Source: Shigella phage Sf20. From it: a stretch of 64,000 nucleotides of DNA. Of the stretch, positions 40,941 to 45,424 are shown piece by piece. The notes beneath the pieces are model-generated. The model made no database searches, was not told the origin of the DNA, and saw only the letters and a program-made list of their open reading frames with translations. Made by a program: the position numbers and the translations under genes. The stretch lies in sequence record MF327006; one strand, given 5' to 3'. Position 1 is the stretch's first letter; every line of letters begins with the position of its first letter.

Positions 40941-42173
40941 TTATACTGCCATTTGAGCGGTGATTGCTGGATGGCTTTGATAGTTGTGAATTTTAAAGTC
41001 TTTCGGAGTCTTTGTCAATACCTCATCTAAAGATTTAAATTCCGGCAACTCAATTGTTGGTTTATCAAACGGAACACGGCTTAACTGTTCCATAACTTGA
41101 TCAAAGTGGTTTTTGTAAATGTGAGTATCTCCACCAGAGAAAATCAGTTCTCCTACCTCAAGATCACACATTTTCGCTATGATGTGAGTTAACAGCGCAT
41201 AGCTGGCGACGTTAAAGGGCAAGCCCAAAAAGCTATCTACGCTTCTCTGAAACCACATGCAAGATAGTTTACCTTCATTGACATAGAATTGCACGAAAGG
41301 ATGACATACACCTAATACAGCATTATGTGTTCCTTGTACGTTCCATGAGTCAATGATGATACGTCGATCCGTTGGATTGTTTTTAATTTGTTCAATCACG
41401 TTTTGTAACTGGTCTTCCCAAATCTTCGGGCGATAGACATATTCTTCATCGTCTTTAGTGCTCGATGTGTCTACGTCCATACTAGCAAAGATCGTGGTAT
41501 CTGGTGCTAAAATATCCCCACCCAGATAATCACTATCAAGCAGATAACCGAAATAACCATCATCTACCCATTCCTGGAATCCCCACAAGCAATATGCATC
41601 ATTAACAAAATTAGATTGAGTCTTCCAGTGATCGGCTACTAAGAATTGATTATATTCAGAATCAAACTCTTCATAACGCATACCACGCCAGATAGCACAT
41701 AAACGGTCTTCTGTGTCATTGGTTGGCGTAAAGTCTTCTACCCACGGGTGTTTAAATGTATGTGTATATTTGCTCTTAACGCGCTTAATTTTGATTTCAC
41801 CATGTGGATGAATCGGTTTGCGTCGCCACGCCATACCATACATATTGCCGACATTATAACCATTGAATCGCAAAGGATTCTTTTCTTTCATATCAAGACA
41901 GTTGCCGCGCCAAATGTCGAAGGCTTCTTCGTCAAACTTGCCGCGTGTAATTTCTTGTAAGCGACGGCGATCAAGTGATCCCTCCATAAACCATAGCAAC
42001 TCGCCAATTACAGAGGCTGTAGCCATCTTTTTAGTGGTCAGTAAGGGGAAACCCTTGCTTAAGTCAATTCGCATTTCTGCACCGAATTTAGAGAGCGTAC
42101 CTACCCCCGTGCGGTCTTCACGAGGCCAGCCATTATCAAGAACATCACGCAACAGTTTCAAATATTCTTTCAT
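40941..42173 (-). CDS. td: thymidylate synthase with ~100-aa internal insertion
   Basis: DRTGVGTLS, DRRIIIDSWNV, CHPFVQFYV, LPFNVASYALL; extra ~100 aa between WRR and DQLQNVIEQ. Confidence 0.85.
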   Translation of the reverse strand: MKEYLKLLRDVLDNGWPREDRTGVGTLSKFGAEMRIDLSKGFPLLTTKKMATASVIGELLWFMEGSLDRRRLQEITRGKFDEEAFDIWRGNCLDMKEKNPLRFNGYNVGNMYGMAWRRKPIHPHGEIKIKRVKSKYTHTFKHPWVEDFTPTNDTEDRLCAIWRGMRYEEFDSEYNQFLVADHWKTQSNFVNDAYCLWGFQEWVDDGYFGYLLDSDYLGGDILAPDTTIFASMDVDTSSTKDDEEYVYRPKIWEDQLQNVIEQIKNNPTDRRIIIDSWNVQGTHNAVLGVCHPFVQFYVNEGKLSCMWFQRSVDSFLGLPFNVASYALLTHIIAKMCDLEVGELIFSGGDTHIYKNHFDQVMEQLSRVPFDKPTIELPEFKSLDEVLTKTPKDFKIHNYQSHPAITAQMAV

Positions 42174-42501: not shown

Positions 42502-43071
42502 TTACGCCTTCTTACGTTCTAAAATTTGTTCGCTGATCAGGTAATCATCAAGGAAGTAATTATGTTCTTCTTTTGTTGCAAAGTCAAAATATAATTCCTG
42601 AATCATTTCCTTAGAGATACCAACATCATATTCGAACGGATCATTAATTCCTGCTCGTTGAACATACGTTAACACAATACGGTCCGCAAAGTCAACCGCT
42701 TTTTCAATCAGGGAAGGTCCGCCGATAACACTTACCAAACCTTGCGTTTTCTCTAGGGCTTTTAACAGATCCTTCAATTCAATTCCAGTATACACATCAG
42801 GTTGGTCGCCGTTTTTAGCTTTCGGTTCTGGCTTGTTGGTATCGGTGCTAACAACCACATTCAAACGTCCCCAAAGTGCTTTAGGCAGACTTTCAAAGGT
42901 ATTGCGTCCCATTACTACCGCAGAAAAATCAACCTCGCCAATAGTGCGCATTTTAAAGTTTTCCATGTCCTTTTTGATTGGACGCCCCCACGGTAAACCG
43001 CCTTTAAAACCAAAAGCCCAATTTTCATCTGACATTTTAGTGTCACCAATCGCAAATACACATTGAATCAT
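42502..43071 (-). CDS. frd: dihydrofolate reductase
   Basis: GGLPWGRP motif and size 189 aa; synteny frd-td. Confidence 0.85.
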   Translation of the reverse strand: MIQCVFAIGDTKMSDENWAFGFKGGLPWGRPIKKDMENFKMRTIGEVDFSAVVMGRNTFESLPKALWGRLNVVVSTDTNKPEPKAKNGDQPDVYTGIELKDLLKALEKTQGLVSVIGGPSLIEKAVDFADRIVLTYVQRAGINDPFEYDVGISKEMIQELYFDFATKEEHNYFLDDYLISEQILERKKA

Positions 43072-43086
43072 AATATAAATCTCCCA

Positions 43087-43449
43087 TCAAATCAGTTTGA
43101 AATAGTTTTCGTTTACATTTTCTTCTGTGATTGCTGTCTTAAATTCTTGACCGTTATCCGGTGTGATGAAATAACGGTCAGAATAATCACGAAAACGTTT
43201 TAAGTGAGATACCCCAACATTAACACCATTTTCCCAAAAACGAAAGGTAATCATTTTTGGTTCATATCGATAGTCGCTGGTTAACACAGTACCATCACCG
43301 CGACGGGCTTCATAAACCGTAATACATTCACGATTAGCGGCTTTAAGACATTCTTCAATAGTGCCGCACGAGATAATACTTAATTTTTCATCTACGATTT
43401 GTTCTACAGTCCACATAATATAATCCTCTCTTTGTTTCGATATGTGCAT
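43087..43449 (-). CDS. hypothetical protein (120 aa)
   Basis: ORF. Confidence 0.45.
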   Translation of the reverse strand: MHISKQREDYIMWTVEQIVDEKLSIISCGTIEECLKAANRECITVYEARRGDGTVLTSDYRYEPKMITFRFWENGVNVGVSHLKRFRDYSDRYFITPDNGQEFKTAITEENVNENYFKLI

Positions 43450-43463
43450 TATACACTATTGCG

Positions 43464-44309
43464 TTACGCTGTCAACTCTTTTTCAAAAGATTTTACGATA
43501 TACATTAAATTTCTAATTTCGGACGGTGGGATTGTCTCTGTCCACCCGTCCGGCATAACTTTTTGCGATACGTGGCGTGTTTTATTACTAAGTTTTTGTC
43601 GAACAATACCCTCTAATTTTAGGGGTATGTTTCCATCTTTAGTTGTTAACGTATGGAATATAAAGTGACGAACGGAAGACACGCTGGATTGCTGTTTCAT
43701 CCTTTCCTCGGCTTTTTTGTTAGTGATTCCGAACTTATACCCGACAATACAACCCCAATTATCAACCAGTTTTTGTATATAAAAGGTTCCTGGTTTTCTT
43801 TTATCATAACCTCCTTTTTGAGTGGGACATTTCGGACACTGCATATCATCTAAAGATGCGACATATTTGCCATGAACGCAGCAATCCATACTTAGATTCT
43901 TTTCTCTTGCATTAATATACCCATTAATAAATCCATTGGATTTTACTTTTTCATTATGAGAACAAAATTCATCAATTCGTATATTTGCTGATATAACATT
44001 TTTTCTTCTCATTCGTTCCATCCAACATTCTTGACAACCACCTCCCCCATTTTTAAGTATATCGATAGTGGTTAATTTTTGCTTGTGGTTTGGATTTAAT
44101 CCACAAGCAATTTTAATTTTAGATCGTACACCAGACCACTCATAGAATCCCAAATATATCATATCTCCGCTTTTTATTTTTGGCGAATTTAATGCTTCAT
44201 TTTCAATCTCAATTGGAGATTTTGAATTATAGTAATGGATATATTCTATATCTTTAGCAAATCTGGTGTTCATTTTGTCCTCCGTTGTTTCTATGCTTGC
44301 ATTATACAT
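43464..44309 (-). CDS. T5orf172/GIY-YIG-like domain protein with Cys-rich N-terminal region
   Basis: C-terminal GTFYIQKL...VGYKFGITNKKAEERMK...GWTETIPP resembles T5orf172 (MUG113) domain; N-terminal CQEC and CPKC pairs. Confidence 0.45.
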   Translation of the reverse strand: MYNASIETTEDKMNTRFAKDIEYIHYYNSKSPIEIENEALNSPKIKSGDMIYLGFYEWSGVRSKIKIACGLNPNHKQKLTTIDILKNGGGGCQECWMERMRRKNVISANIRIDEFCSHNEKVKSNGFINGYINAREKNLSMDCCVHGKYVASLDDMQCPKCPTQKGGYDKRKPGTFYIQKLVDNWGCIVGYKFGITNKKAEERMKQQSSVSSVRHFIFHTLTTKDGNIPLKLEGIVRQKLSNKTRHVSQKVMPDGWTETIPPSEIRNLMYIVKSFEKELTA

Positions 44310-44328
44310 TATCTCGGATCAGTGTCAA
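44301..44328 (-). promoter_or_regulatory. early sigma70-type promoter
   Basis: - strand TTGACA, 16 nt, TATAAT upstream of 43464..44309. Confidence 0.45.
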
Positions 44329-44354
44329 CACCTTTTTCATAAAAATTTAGGCAA

Positions 44355-44381
44355 TAAAAAAGCCTCCCCTTCGGGGAGGCT
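44355..44381 (-). terminator. terminator hairpin after gene 32 (AGCCTCCCC-TTCG-GGGGAGGCT)
   Basis: Perfect GC stem followed by T-run on - strand. Confidence 0.6.
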
Positions 44382-44391
44382 ATAAAATTCA

Positions 44392-45366
44392 TCACATCGC
44401 TAACAGAGAGTCCAGGTCATCCAGATCAGAAGCGGAGGAAGTACCGCCACCCAGGTCCAGAGATGCCATCAGGTCATCAGCGGAAGAATCTAACGCCGTG
44501 CTAGCTGCATTAATACCAACTACAGTGCTAGCTGCGGTCATACCAGAATCGAATGCATTCATCTGTGCGTCAAAATCGTCAAGCTGGCTGTTAATCGCTG
44601 CCGCAGCACTGGAAGCCGCAGCACCAGCTACCATAGAAACGCCCATAGTTTTCTTAAATTTGGTTTCCAGTTCATCGAACGGTTTAAACTGGCTAGGCGC
44701 TACAATCTCACTCAGATCAACCATGTTTTCCATCAGATATTTCTGATATGCTTCGTCTTCAATTTTCGGAAGCTGTGATTGCTGCATGAAACGAGAATCA
44801 TCATAGTTCTGGTGTTTATCAACCTTCTTAGCTTTCAGGAGGAAGTTAGCACCAGAGAACACACAAGTTACATCGACCGGAACTTCGCCCATATCGGTAT
44901 TCACGTTAACCATTGCAACGATCTTATCATAAATTTTCTGACCGAAGCGGAATTTGAATACCTTACCTTCATTTTCTGGTGCTTGAGGATCTTTCAGTAC
45001 CAGAATATTTGCGTAGTAAGACGCTTTACGCTTAATCAGTTGCCATTCGGTTTTATCGGTATTGTACAGGTCTTTTTCGTTAATATATTTGCACACAGGG
45101 CAAGAATCAAAATCACCGTGGGTGCTGGAGCAGTTTTCCCAATACCATTTACCATTAACTTTGAAGGAATGGTTTACCAGTTTCACAATCGGCAGACCGT
45201 CTTCTGTCTTAGACGGCAGGAAGCGAATCAGTGCTTCACCGTTACCTGCTGCATCAGTCTTAATCTTCCACTCTTTCGGATCTTCTTTGGAGAAACCGTT
45301 GCCACCTTTCAGTGCGGCCAGTTGAGCTTGCAGTTTGGAAGAATCTTGGCGTTTAAACATATTCAC
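44392..45366 (-). CDS. 32: single-stranded DNA-binding protein gp32
   Basis: Extensive identity to T4 gp32 ([47 protein letters not shown]). Confidence 0.95.
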
Positions 45367-45396
45367 TATTCCTTCTTTTGATTGATTTACTAGACT

Positions 45397-45424
45397 ATTA
45401 TACAGATTTAAATTTACTTGTCAA
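45397..45424 (-). promoter_or_regulatory. sigma70-type promoter upstream of gene 32
   Basis: - strand TTGACA, 16 nt, TATAAT. Confidence 0.45.

Follow-up and report, generated by a model that had tools for sequence, protein, structure and literature searches.

What kind of gene occupies the interval between gene 32 and frd in Shigella phage Sf20, and how did it come to be there? The locus lies in the window, a stretch of 64,000 nucleotides (nt) of sequence record MF327006, which belongs to a Krischvirus, an RB49-like T4-type phage. An earlier examination of the DNA letters (the sequence-only reading) had noticed here a protein resembling T5orf172 and GIY-YIG proteins with a Cys-rich N-terminus, and had placed its gene between frd and gene 32. 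The placement holds, except that a small gene, labeled frd.x here, intervenes on the frd side. From the comparisons described below, the gene probably encodes a homing endonuclease of the CapR/T5orf172 family and forms a free-standing, optional cassette between genes 32 and frd.x. Its anatomy and family ties, its conserved key residues, the polymorphism of its slot, and its atypical base composition are shown below; DNA cleavage, a target site, and homing are what we infer for it.

First, the slot between genes 32 and frd.x is polymorphic. It was surveyed in 57 Krischvirus records with a 281-nt probe across the uninterrupted junction of phage PHB13. The junction is intact, and the slot thus empty, in six records (PHB13, FL20, JSE in two records, KMB43, and LF73P4). 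An insert of ~380 nt with an unrelated open reading frame (ORF) of 109 amino acids (aa), which was examined in MIZ6, is present in about 16 records (about 14 phages). For most of the others, the probe match is limited to the gene 32 side or split between two places, which indicates a larger insert, and other alleles of the endonuclease gene are found in the slot of about 30 records. Their products include RB49p240 of 485 aa (annotated as "endonuclease"), a 338-aa protein in W115, and a 414-aa protein in kaaroe. The unrelated ORF starts with MFLNATLSQKSDKIELLYV and is located at 1373..1702 of L008 (MIZ6) and at 1109..1438 of contig L018; the latter holds both genes, in the order 32, endonuclease, 109-aa ORF, and frd.x. 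An optional gene between conserved genes, present in some and absent from other close relatives, is a distribution typical of the free-standing homing endonuclease genes of T4-type phages. The suggestion of an inserted cassette in the sequence-only reading was therefore borne out at the frd-32 junction: some relatives have an empty site, and others have a different allele or a different occupant in the slot.

The allele in the window is a rare one. Among 50,697 phage records, it can be aligned over its full length only in ELT4, MIZ4, and MIZ5 (97.5-98.3% identity), and every other Krischvirus shares only its last ~105 nt, at 78-85% identity. The identical 269-aa protein occurs in three flank configurations, namely with an HNH_3 gene between 59 and 32, without such an HNH gene, and with the MIZ6-type 109-aa ORF downstream. 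In addition, the flanks in the window are nearer to those of W115 and MIZ6, whose slots have other contents, than to those of the phages sharing the allele. These two observations are indirect evidence for homing. The gene has a G+C content of 34.2% (window, 40.3%) and ranks among the lowest 0.16% of 810-nt windows. Polymorphism, mixing of flanks, and low G+C together are what is commonly seen in an optional cassette that moves horizontally. Between the window and ELT4, the endonuclease genes differ by six synonymous and two non-synonymous changes; from this ratio and from the identical protein on nine contigs, it can be argued that the allele is still under selection.

Second, the C-terminal part of the protein can be connected to known nucleases. 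A profile built from seven sequences of this domain matched 1182 representative clusters at E<=0.001. The domain is C-terminal in nearly all of the 150 clusters listed, most of which are proteins of 250-620 aa, with a few short domain-only ones. Among 58 homologues, MUG113 is matched at E<=0.1 by 25, T5orf172 by 16, and GIY-YIG by six. One of the homologues, P0020 (E=8e-16 to the domain profile), exceeds the Pfam cut-offs of both T5orf172 (24.0 vs 20 bits, positions 1-97 of 101) and MUG113 (26.6 vs 22.3). P0018 and P0031 are above the Pfam cut-off of MUG113, and P0018 is named "GIY-YIG nuclease family protein" in one source. Through such intermediate sequences, homology extends to bona fide members of T5orf172 and MUG113. 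The whole protein also matches phrog_681, "endonuclease" (E=2.5e-46).

The predicted fold gives a divided picture: annotated viral models match it, but the PDB searches described below brought up no GIY-YIG structure among the matches listed. The AlphaFold (AF2) model of the domain has a predicted local distance difference test score (pLDDT) of 96.7 and a predicted template modeling score (pTM) of 0.89. Its elements follow in the order beta-beta-alpha-beta-alpha-alpha; the reference GIY-YIG fold is a three-stranded sheet with the order beta-beta-alpha-beta-alpha. In a search of BFVD with the domain model, 101 models were found at E<=0.001, and the annotated ones have template modeling (TM) scores of 0.72-0.84 and E-values of 1e-6 to 1e-10. 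Among their labels are "GIY-YIG domain-containing" (K64-1, TM 0.79), "Homing endonuclease" (phage UB, TM 0.84), and "Bacteriophage T5 Orf172 DNA-binding domain-containing" (phage navn, TM 0.72). The motif sought in the sequence consisted of Tyr in strand 1 ("GIY"), x-[FIY]-G in strand 2 ("YIG"), Arg in helix 1, and a catalytic Glu, and its residues are present as Y165 (FYIQK), K180-F181-G182 (YKFGIT), R191, and E221. In 37 diverse members, K180, G182, R191, E221, G243, and E246 are invariant, and Y165, I183, T184, T245, and T247 are nearly so; Y165 is kept wherever the sequence of a member extends to the first strand.

The best guide to the catalytic residues is Odn (Gp88 of phage ICP1), which cleaves DNA in vitro and loses this activity with the E180A substitution (PMC8263062). 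When the domain profile was aligned with Odn by hhalign (E=9e-4, 89 columns), R148 of Odn stood opposite R191, and the catalytic E180 opposite E221. Helix 1 has no conserved His or Tyr, the same as in Odn (PMC8263062). R191 and E221 are thus the likely catalytic residues. E246, in the string GWTET, had been considered as the catalytic Glu and was dropped because E180 of Odn aligns with E221; it remains an invariant residue without an assigned role. T5orf172 belongs to the GIY-YIG clan (PMC8096241; PMC8263062), and we conclude from these comparisons that the predicted domain is a divergent branch of the T5orf172/MUG113 group in the GIY-YIG superfamily. The T5orf172/GIY-YIG-like character noticed in the sequence-only reading is therefore supported by the intermediates, the BFVD folds, and the Odn alignment, and the strings it had quoted (GTFYIQKL, YKFGITNKKAEERMK, and GWTETIPP) are all present in the translation of the ORF.

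It could be asked at this point whether the C-terminal domain cuts DNA at all. The protein might be a pure sequence-specific DNA-binding regulator like the CapR protein of PLE satellites, with the C-terminal domain used for DNA binding only. CapR-type modules do form a transcriptional repressor in PLE (PMC8096241), and DNA binding was the original prediction for T5orf172, for which the UniProt label is still "DNA-binding domain." However, the comparison made for PLE CapR covered only the N-terminal modules of ICP1 proteins, and the T5orf172 domain was described for the ICP1 proteins only (PMC8096241). Throughout the family of the window protein, the Arg and Glu on which catalysis by Odn depends do not vary, and the slot is filled or empty in the manner of a dispensable selfish gene. 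A pure regulator is thus highly improbable.

Third, the N-terminal half can be connected to zinc modules of the CapR type. The two Cys pairs seen in the sequence-only reading are C80-x2-C83 and C146-x2-C149, and each is preceded by Cys and His residues (C57/H63 and C131/H133). In the alignment of slot alleles, G42, F43, W46, C57, H63, C80, C83, F115, G118, C131, C146, and C149 are invariant, and H133 is the putative fourth ligand of the second module. The link to certified modules is provided by RB49p240, which has four Pfam CapR domains (PF21817, 9e-19) together with matches to the treble-clef models DUF723 and DUF4379. In BLASTP, the window protein matches RB49p240 both in the C-terminal domain (E=3e-46) and in the N-terminus (E=1e-10), with residues ~103-152 opposite residues 318-369, a Pfam-certified CapR module. 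With a self-built hidden Markov model (HMM) of the module, which was iterated over the family, two modules were detected in the window protein (independent E-values of 4e-11 for module 1 and 2e-14 for module 2), two to five in the other slot alleles, and one to seven across 177 family representatives. The N-terminal half thus appears homologous to certified CapR modules, with conserved putative four-ligand zinc sites. In the full-length AlphaFold model, both modules and the nuclease domain are predicted confidently. In the PLE CapR domain, DNA binding depends on the four conserved cysteines (PMC8096241), and T5orf172 homing endonuclease genes typically have repeated and shuffled CapR, DUF723, or DUF4379 modules (PMC10448857).

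Alleles from public assemblies give a view of how such arrays vary. In P0058-P0070, the nuclease domain ends in ~85 residues that are near-identical across >15 alleles, and the N-terminal arrays of these alleles fall into different 50%-identity clusters. The P0064 allele has five near-identical tandem repeats of the zinc module. The near-constant ends and the repeats of P0064 suggest recent repeat expansion and recombination within the gene.

Several results weigh against the endonuclease reading. The sequence-only reading had expected similarity to T5orf172 or GIY-YIG in a profile search; taken literally, this expectation failed, and more than a single profile search was needed. Pfam hmmscan of the 269-aa protein gave no match to T5orf172 (PF10544), MUG113 (PF13455), or GIY-YIG, nor to CapR (PF21817), DUF723, or DUF4379, even at E<=1. 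RB49p240 and T5.141 of phage T5 likewise have no Pfam match to T5orf172, MUG113, or GIY-YIG. No match was found with NCBIfam. The sole match in the family scans was YkyB (E=0.14), which was taken as chance. Profile searches against PDB sequences, with domain profiles of seven and 37 sequences, gave only chance-level matches (E>0.3). Foldseek searches of PDB with the full-length and domain models had no match at E<=0.001 (best E=0.2) and no GIY-YIG structure among the 50 best-ranked matches listed; the myosins and similar proteins that appeared there (E>=0.2) were read as no result and not as another fold. When the domain profile was compared by hhalign with the single sequences of I-TevI and SegG, the probability was 0.4%, and it was only 23% in the alignment with Odn. 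A target site or co-conversion tract was sought in both flanks with 50-nt windows in seven relatives, and only ordinary mosaicism was seen. Nothing in the flanks separated cassette-bearing from cassette-less phages, so that no cleavage site could be inferred from these seven. In the MIZ4 copy, the frame is broken by two indels, a deletion and an insertion of 1 nt each, and the MIZ5 copy, whose match to the query is identical, is counted among the frameshifted copies; by these two copies, the gene is evidently dispensable. Finally, the window allele is the shortest, with two modules, and its nuclease domain is ~54% identical to those of the other alleles, so that it could have reduced or altered activity.

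The boundaries of the gene and its signals are as follows (Table 1). The sequence-only reading had taken the whole ORF at 43464..44309 as the gene. The ORF is uninterrupted and has 281 aa counted from its first ATG, but the likely start is the second ATG, at 44273. The first ATG (44309-44307) lies between the -35 and -10 hexamers of the promoter, abutting the upstream side of the latter, and therefore would not be on the transcript of that promoter. The second ATG is placed five bases after GGAGG, as read off the sequence. It is also used in the annotation of ELT4 (the same 810-nt coding sequence), in the gene call of P0001, and on the nine public contigs that encode exactly the 269-aa product.

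Table 1. Features of the gene 32/frd.x locus in the window (functions are predicted).
Feature	Position	Strand	Remarks
Endonuclease coding sequence, likely start	43464..44273	(-)	269 aa + stop (stop codon 43464-43466); 810 nt
CapR-like zinc-ribbon module 1	44019..44165	(-)	Residues 37-85; putative Zn ligands C57, H63, C80, C83
CapR-like zinc-ribbon module 2	43821..43946	(-)	Residues 110-151; putative Zn ligands C131, H133, C146, C149
T5orf172-like (GIY-YIG superfamily) nuclease domain	43467..43811	(-)	Residues 155-269, 115 aa
Key codons	R191 43701-43703; E221 43611-43613; E246 43536-43538	(-)	
Shine-Dalgarno GGAGG	44279..44283	(-)	5 nt upstream of ATG 44273
Own early sigma-70-type promoter	44301..44328	(-)	TTGACA-16-TATAAT, 12/12; -35 44328..44323, -10 44306..44301
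Early promoter of frd.x	43448..43475	(-)	Embedded in endonuclease gene 3' end
Gene 32 intrinsic terminator	44361..44381	(-)	9-bp stem, T-run; directly after gene 32 stop codon
Gene 32, single-stranded DNA-binding protein	44392..45366	(-)	PF08804; conserved upstream neighbor
frd.x (label given here), phrog_16287	43087..43416	(-)	110 aa; conserved downstream neighbor, other slot edge
frd	42502..43071	(-)	

Three perfect 12/12 sigma-70 promoters (TTGACA-16-TATAAT) are found here on the minus strand. One is located upstream of gene 32 (45424..45397), one upstream of the endonuclease ORF (44328..44301), and the third (43475..43448) belongs to frd.x. The homologous promoter upstream of RB49 gene 32 is annotated as "early RB49 promoter," and the record of GEC-3S annotates a promoter and a -35 signal at the position of the frd.x promoter. 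The -35 hexamer TTGACA of the frd.x promoter is formed by codons L267-T268 at the C-terminus of the endonuclease (...ELTA*). Of the promoter and terminator that the sequence-only reading had assigned to the gene, the promoter stands. The terminator (44381..44361) is upstream of this promoter and just past the stop codon of gene 32, and thus belongs to gene 32; it also adjoins gene 32 in the empty-site phage PHB13 and marks the upstream edge of the slot. No terminator was found 3' of the endonuclease ORF, and that of gene 32 is the sole minus-strand terminator here.

The overlap of the 3' end of the endonuclease gene with the frd.x promoter differs among isolates. In P0001, a variant of 274 aa with 98% identity, the ORF extends through the frd.x promoter (L011 950..1011, Logan contig DRR569831_83831), and its stop codon falls inside the -10 hexamer (…GAT GAT GTA TAA…). 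The promoter/leader segments on the two sides of the cassette (43384..43500 and 44262..44372 of the window, minus strand) are 67% identical, and both contain TGAAAAAG-GTTGACA, TGTATAATGCA, and GAAACAA-G-GAGGA. A control early promoter, that of gene 32, scores 58-61% against them. The single promoter of PHB13 resembles a chimera of the two leaders of the window (about 75% to each). A cassette bracketed by a duplicated promoter was considered; with 67% identity against 58-61% for the unrelated control, this is only suggestive, and the leader similarity may be a trace of cassette gain or loss.

Taking these elements together, a mechanism can be proposed for the homing endonuclease gene. It would be transcribed early from its own consensus sigma-70 promoter. 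The 269-aa protein would bind specific DNA via its two tandem CapR-type zinc-ribbon modules, each with a Cys/His...CxxC site, and its C-terminal T5orf172-type domain, with R191 and E221 as likely catalytic residues, would cut the DNA nearby. Cleavage would most likely be directed at the gene 32/frd.x region of co-infecting relatives without the window allele. The break would then be repaired by recombination from the cassette-bearing genome, and the cassette, probably with flanking markers, would be copied into the recipient. The frd.x promoter built into the last codons would discourage clean deletion. In T4, free-standing endonuclease genes are known to contain embedded promoters (PMC2988022).

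The same embedded promoter may be viewed differently, as the main reason for which a decaying, weak, or inactive remnant is retained. The window gene would then be a short allele late in the cycle of invasion, degeneration, and loss. It belongs to the shortest allele class, with two modules versus up to five, and the modules themselves are unusual: the loop of module 2 is shortened, module 1 has an atypical C-x5-H spacing, and the Pfam CapR model recognizes neither. The frameshifts in MIZ4 and MIZ5 would also suit such decay. On the other hand, the window protein has kept every family-invariant nuclease residue and all eight putative zinc ligands, and AlphaFold is confident for both modules and the nuclease domain. 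The nine contigs with the identical 269-aa protein are independent, and the 6:2 ratio of synonymous to non-synonymous changes relative to ELT4, which is based on just eight sites, is compatible with purifying selection. Another two-module allele also exists (P0065, 265 aa). We regard a remnant as quite unlikely.

Another alternative concerns the use to which cleavage is put. A weaponized or domesticated nuclease could cut competitor DNA, that is, DNA of co-infecting phages, satellites, plasmids, or the host, as Odn does with PLE satellites. Odn is a T5orf172 nuclease that was derived from homing endonuclease genes and is used defensively (PMC8263062). The strong early promoter of the window gene would suit an early-acting weapon, while the endonuclease-specific promoters of T4 are middle or late, never early (PMC2988022), and the many alleles with differing zinc-module arrays at one slot would fit an arms race over targets. 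However, the gene is absent from many close relatives and frameshifted in MIZ4 and MIZ5, and no satellite or target is known for Krischviruses. RB49-type phages are not known to have the middle-promoter mode of T4, so that an early promoter may not be significant in itself. The distinction between weapon and homing is in any case blurred by marker exclusion through homing endonucleases. A weapon is thus an unlikely reading of this gene, and a homing endonuclease gene remains the one that we favor.

The diversity of alleles also allows a more speculative extension. More than 15 slot alleles are <50% identical overall, one of them with five near-identical repeats. The slot may host a rapidly diversifying, "programmable" nuclease, in which a near-constant T5orf172 end is joined to a hypervariable zinc-ribbon array of two to five modules, and gain, loss, and shuffling of modules re-target the enzyme in an arms race between co-infecting phages. 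The two-module allele of the window would then be an independent lineage that replaced the resident by recombination in the shared last ~105 nt and the embedded promoter. This extension is a possibility that we offer with considerable doubt.

The surroundings of the cassette are mosaic as well. On the minus strand, the gene order is 59, 32, endonuclease, frd.x, frd, two small ORFs, and td. The region is 96% identical to ELT4, MIZ4, and MIZ5, and 93-95% identical to RB49, Phi1, GEC-3S, and others. In T4, the sequence-only reading had seen no gene at this place; this was incorrect, since frd.1, frd.2, and frd.3 are present between frd and 32, though none of them is annotated as an endonuclease. 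The GIY-YIG endonuclease SegG of T4 sits on the other side of gene 32. In the window, this junction of genes 32 and 59 (45367..45420) is only ~55 nt long; in its closest relatives ELT4, MIZ4, and MIZ5, and in contig L013, it contains a gene for a 198-aa HNH_3 homing endonuclease. This junction, at which SegG is found in T4, is a second polymorphic endonuclease slot flanking gene 32. The frd gene has 582 nt in ELT4 and MIZ4 and 570 nt in the window, RB49, and others, due to a 12-nt indel (L001/L004 vs 42750..42800 of the window). The frd region of the window is nearer to W115 and MIZ6 than to ELT4 and MIZ4, which indicates local mosaicism independent of the endonuclease allele. The td gene for thymidylate synthase (40941..42173, minus strand) encodes 410 aa with Pfam Thymidylat_synt matches in two stretches, the second of which covers residues 254-410 (profile positions 110-266). 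An in-frame insertion of roughly 125-140 aa without a Pfam match is implied. The same 1233-nt td is annotated in RB49, MIZ4, ELT4, and MIZ6 and looks like a feature of the lineage; unlike in T4, it is not an intron/I-TevI arrangement. No further members of the endonuclease family were found within the window.

What, then, does this locus add? The CapR/T5orf172 kind of gene is already known (PMC8096241; PMC10448857), with homing endonuclease genes characterized in ICP1, T5-like, Aeromonas, and Vibrio phages, and relatives of the window protein are labeled "endonuclease" in RefSeq and PHROGs. New is, first, the proposed placement of this subfamily in the T5orf172 group, although the Pfam models miss it. 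The second new point is the gene 32/frd.x slot of Krischviruses, with >15 alleles that differ mainly in their zinc-module arrays, and the third is the window allele as a rare two-module form with a divergent nuclease domain. The CapR/T5orf172 class thus appears as a common and highly polymorphic occupant of a fixed slot by gene 32 in the RB49 branch of T4-type phages. The nuclease domain of the subfamily described here is missed by the Pfam models of T5orf172, MUG113, and GIY-YIG and is therefore often auto-annotated as "hypothetical protein." T5.141, RB49p240, and the window protein are all missed by Pfam T5orf172, which is a systematic gap in coverage. A dedicated model would mend many annotations, as the number of clusters matching the domain profile indicates. 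The allelic series, with the same slot and gene ends and two to five modules, could reveal how zinc-ribbon arrays set the target specificity of a nuclease, and the two-module protein of the window is its simplest member. The prevailing view of how such elements work is not changed.

Among known systems, SegG and I-TevI of T4 share the logic of a modular DNA-binding part combined with a nuclease of the GIY-YIG superfamily. Their nuclease domains are N-terminal, so that the order is reversed relative to the window protein. SegG adjoins gene 32 and cuts within it, and promoters of gene 32 lie inside segG (PMC2988022). The window gene is located on the opposite side of gene 32 and has no detectable sequence similarity to SegG. 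Its embedded frd.x promoter mirrors segG and other T4 endonuclease genes (Edgell et al., PMC2988022), but its own promoter is a consensus early one, in contrast to the middle or late class of the T4 genes. T4 itself has no T5orf172 genes (Barth 2023, PMC10448857). The names RB49 and Krischvirus were not found in the text or supplements of that study, nor T5 names in its supplements.

Closer in the nuclease is Odn, the only close functional analogue with demonstrated cleavage (PMC8263062). It has a T5orf172 domain (Pfam 7e-8), and the two catalytic residues of this domain, Arg and Glu, stand opposite R191 and E221 in the alignment. However, the DNA-binding part of Odn is RepA_N-like (Pfam DUF6945 here) and does not consist of CapR modules, and Odn serves anti-satellite defense, not homing. 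Conversely, PLE CapR, a satellite repressor of the ICP1 capsid operon, has the same type of zinc-finger DNA-binding module; it is a repressor, and its likeness to ICP1 proteins is confined to their N-terminal DNA-binding part. Both parts are combined in Gp121, Gp130, and other putative homing endonucleases of ICP1, with N-terminal CapR-type repeats and a C-terminal T5orf172-type domain as in the window protein (PMC8096241; PMC10448857). These genes are likewise free-standing beside essential genes, with variation in repeat number and shuffling of modules. Differences are that ICP1 is of another phage lineage and that its proteins match Pfam T5orf172 directly, which the window protein does not. 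For example, Gp121 has CapR and T5orf172 by Pfam, and the hhalign match of the window domain profile to it is weak (E=0.011). ORF130 of ICP1 (L010 34754..35001) is annotated as "similar to RB49p240."

The best match in size and architecture to the two-module allele is T5.141 (L006 1087..1839), an endonuclease of 250 aa with two Pfam CapR modules and the same C-terminal domain. It is 36% identical to the window protein over the last ~125 residues (124 columns, tblastn E=1e-13). T5.141 is from a different phage family and a different slot, between the genes for a tail assembly chaperone and the tape measure, and its modules are recognized as CapR by Pfam (2e-24), whereas those of the window protein are not. 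The note in its record reads "similar to RB49ORF239C"; the GenBank notes that link T5.141 and ICP1 ORF130 to RB49p240/RB49ORF239c predate the CapR/T5orf172 papers by years. Closest of all are RB49p240 (RB49ORF239c) itself and the alleles of W115, kaaroe, FL38, GEC-3S, Phi1, and other Krischviruses, which have the same architecture in the same slot. The layout is shared throughout, with the gene 32 terminator, the promoter, the gene, and the embedded frd.x promoter. The N-terminal leaders are similar, the last 13 residues are identical, and the last ~105 nt, the only part where the DNA can be aligned with the window allele, are 81-85% identical. The window allele differs in having two zinc modules versus three to five in the RB49p240 series, and its nuclease domain is about 54% identical to theirs, which share a near-identical final ~85 aa among themselves.

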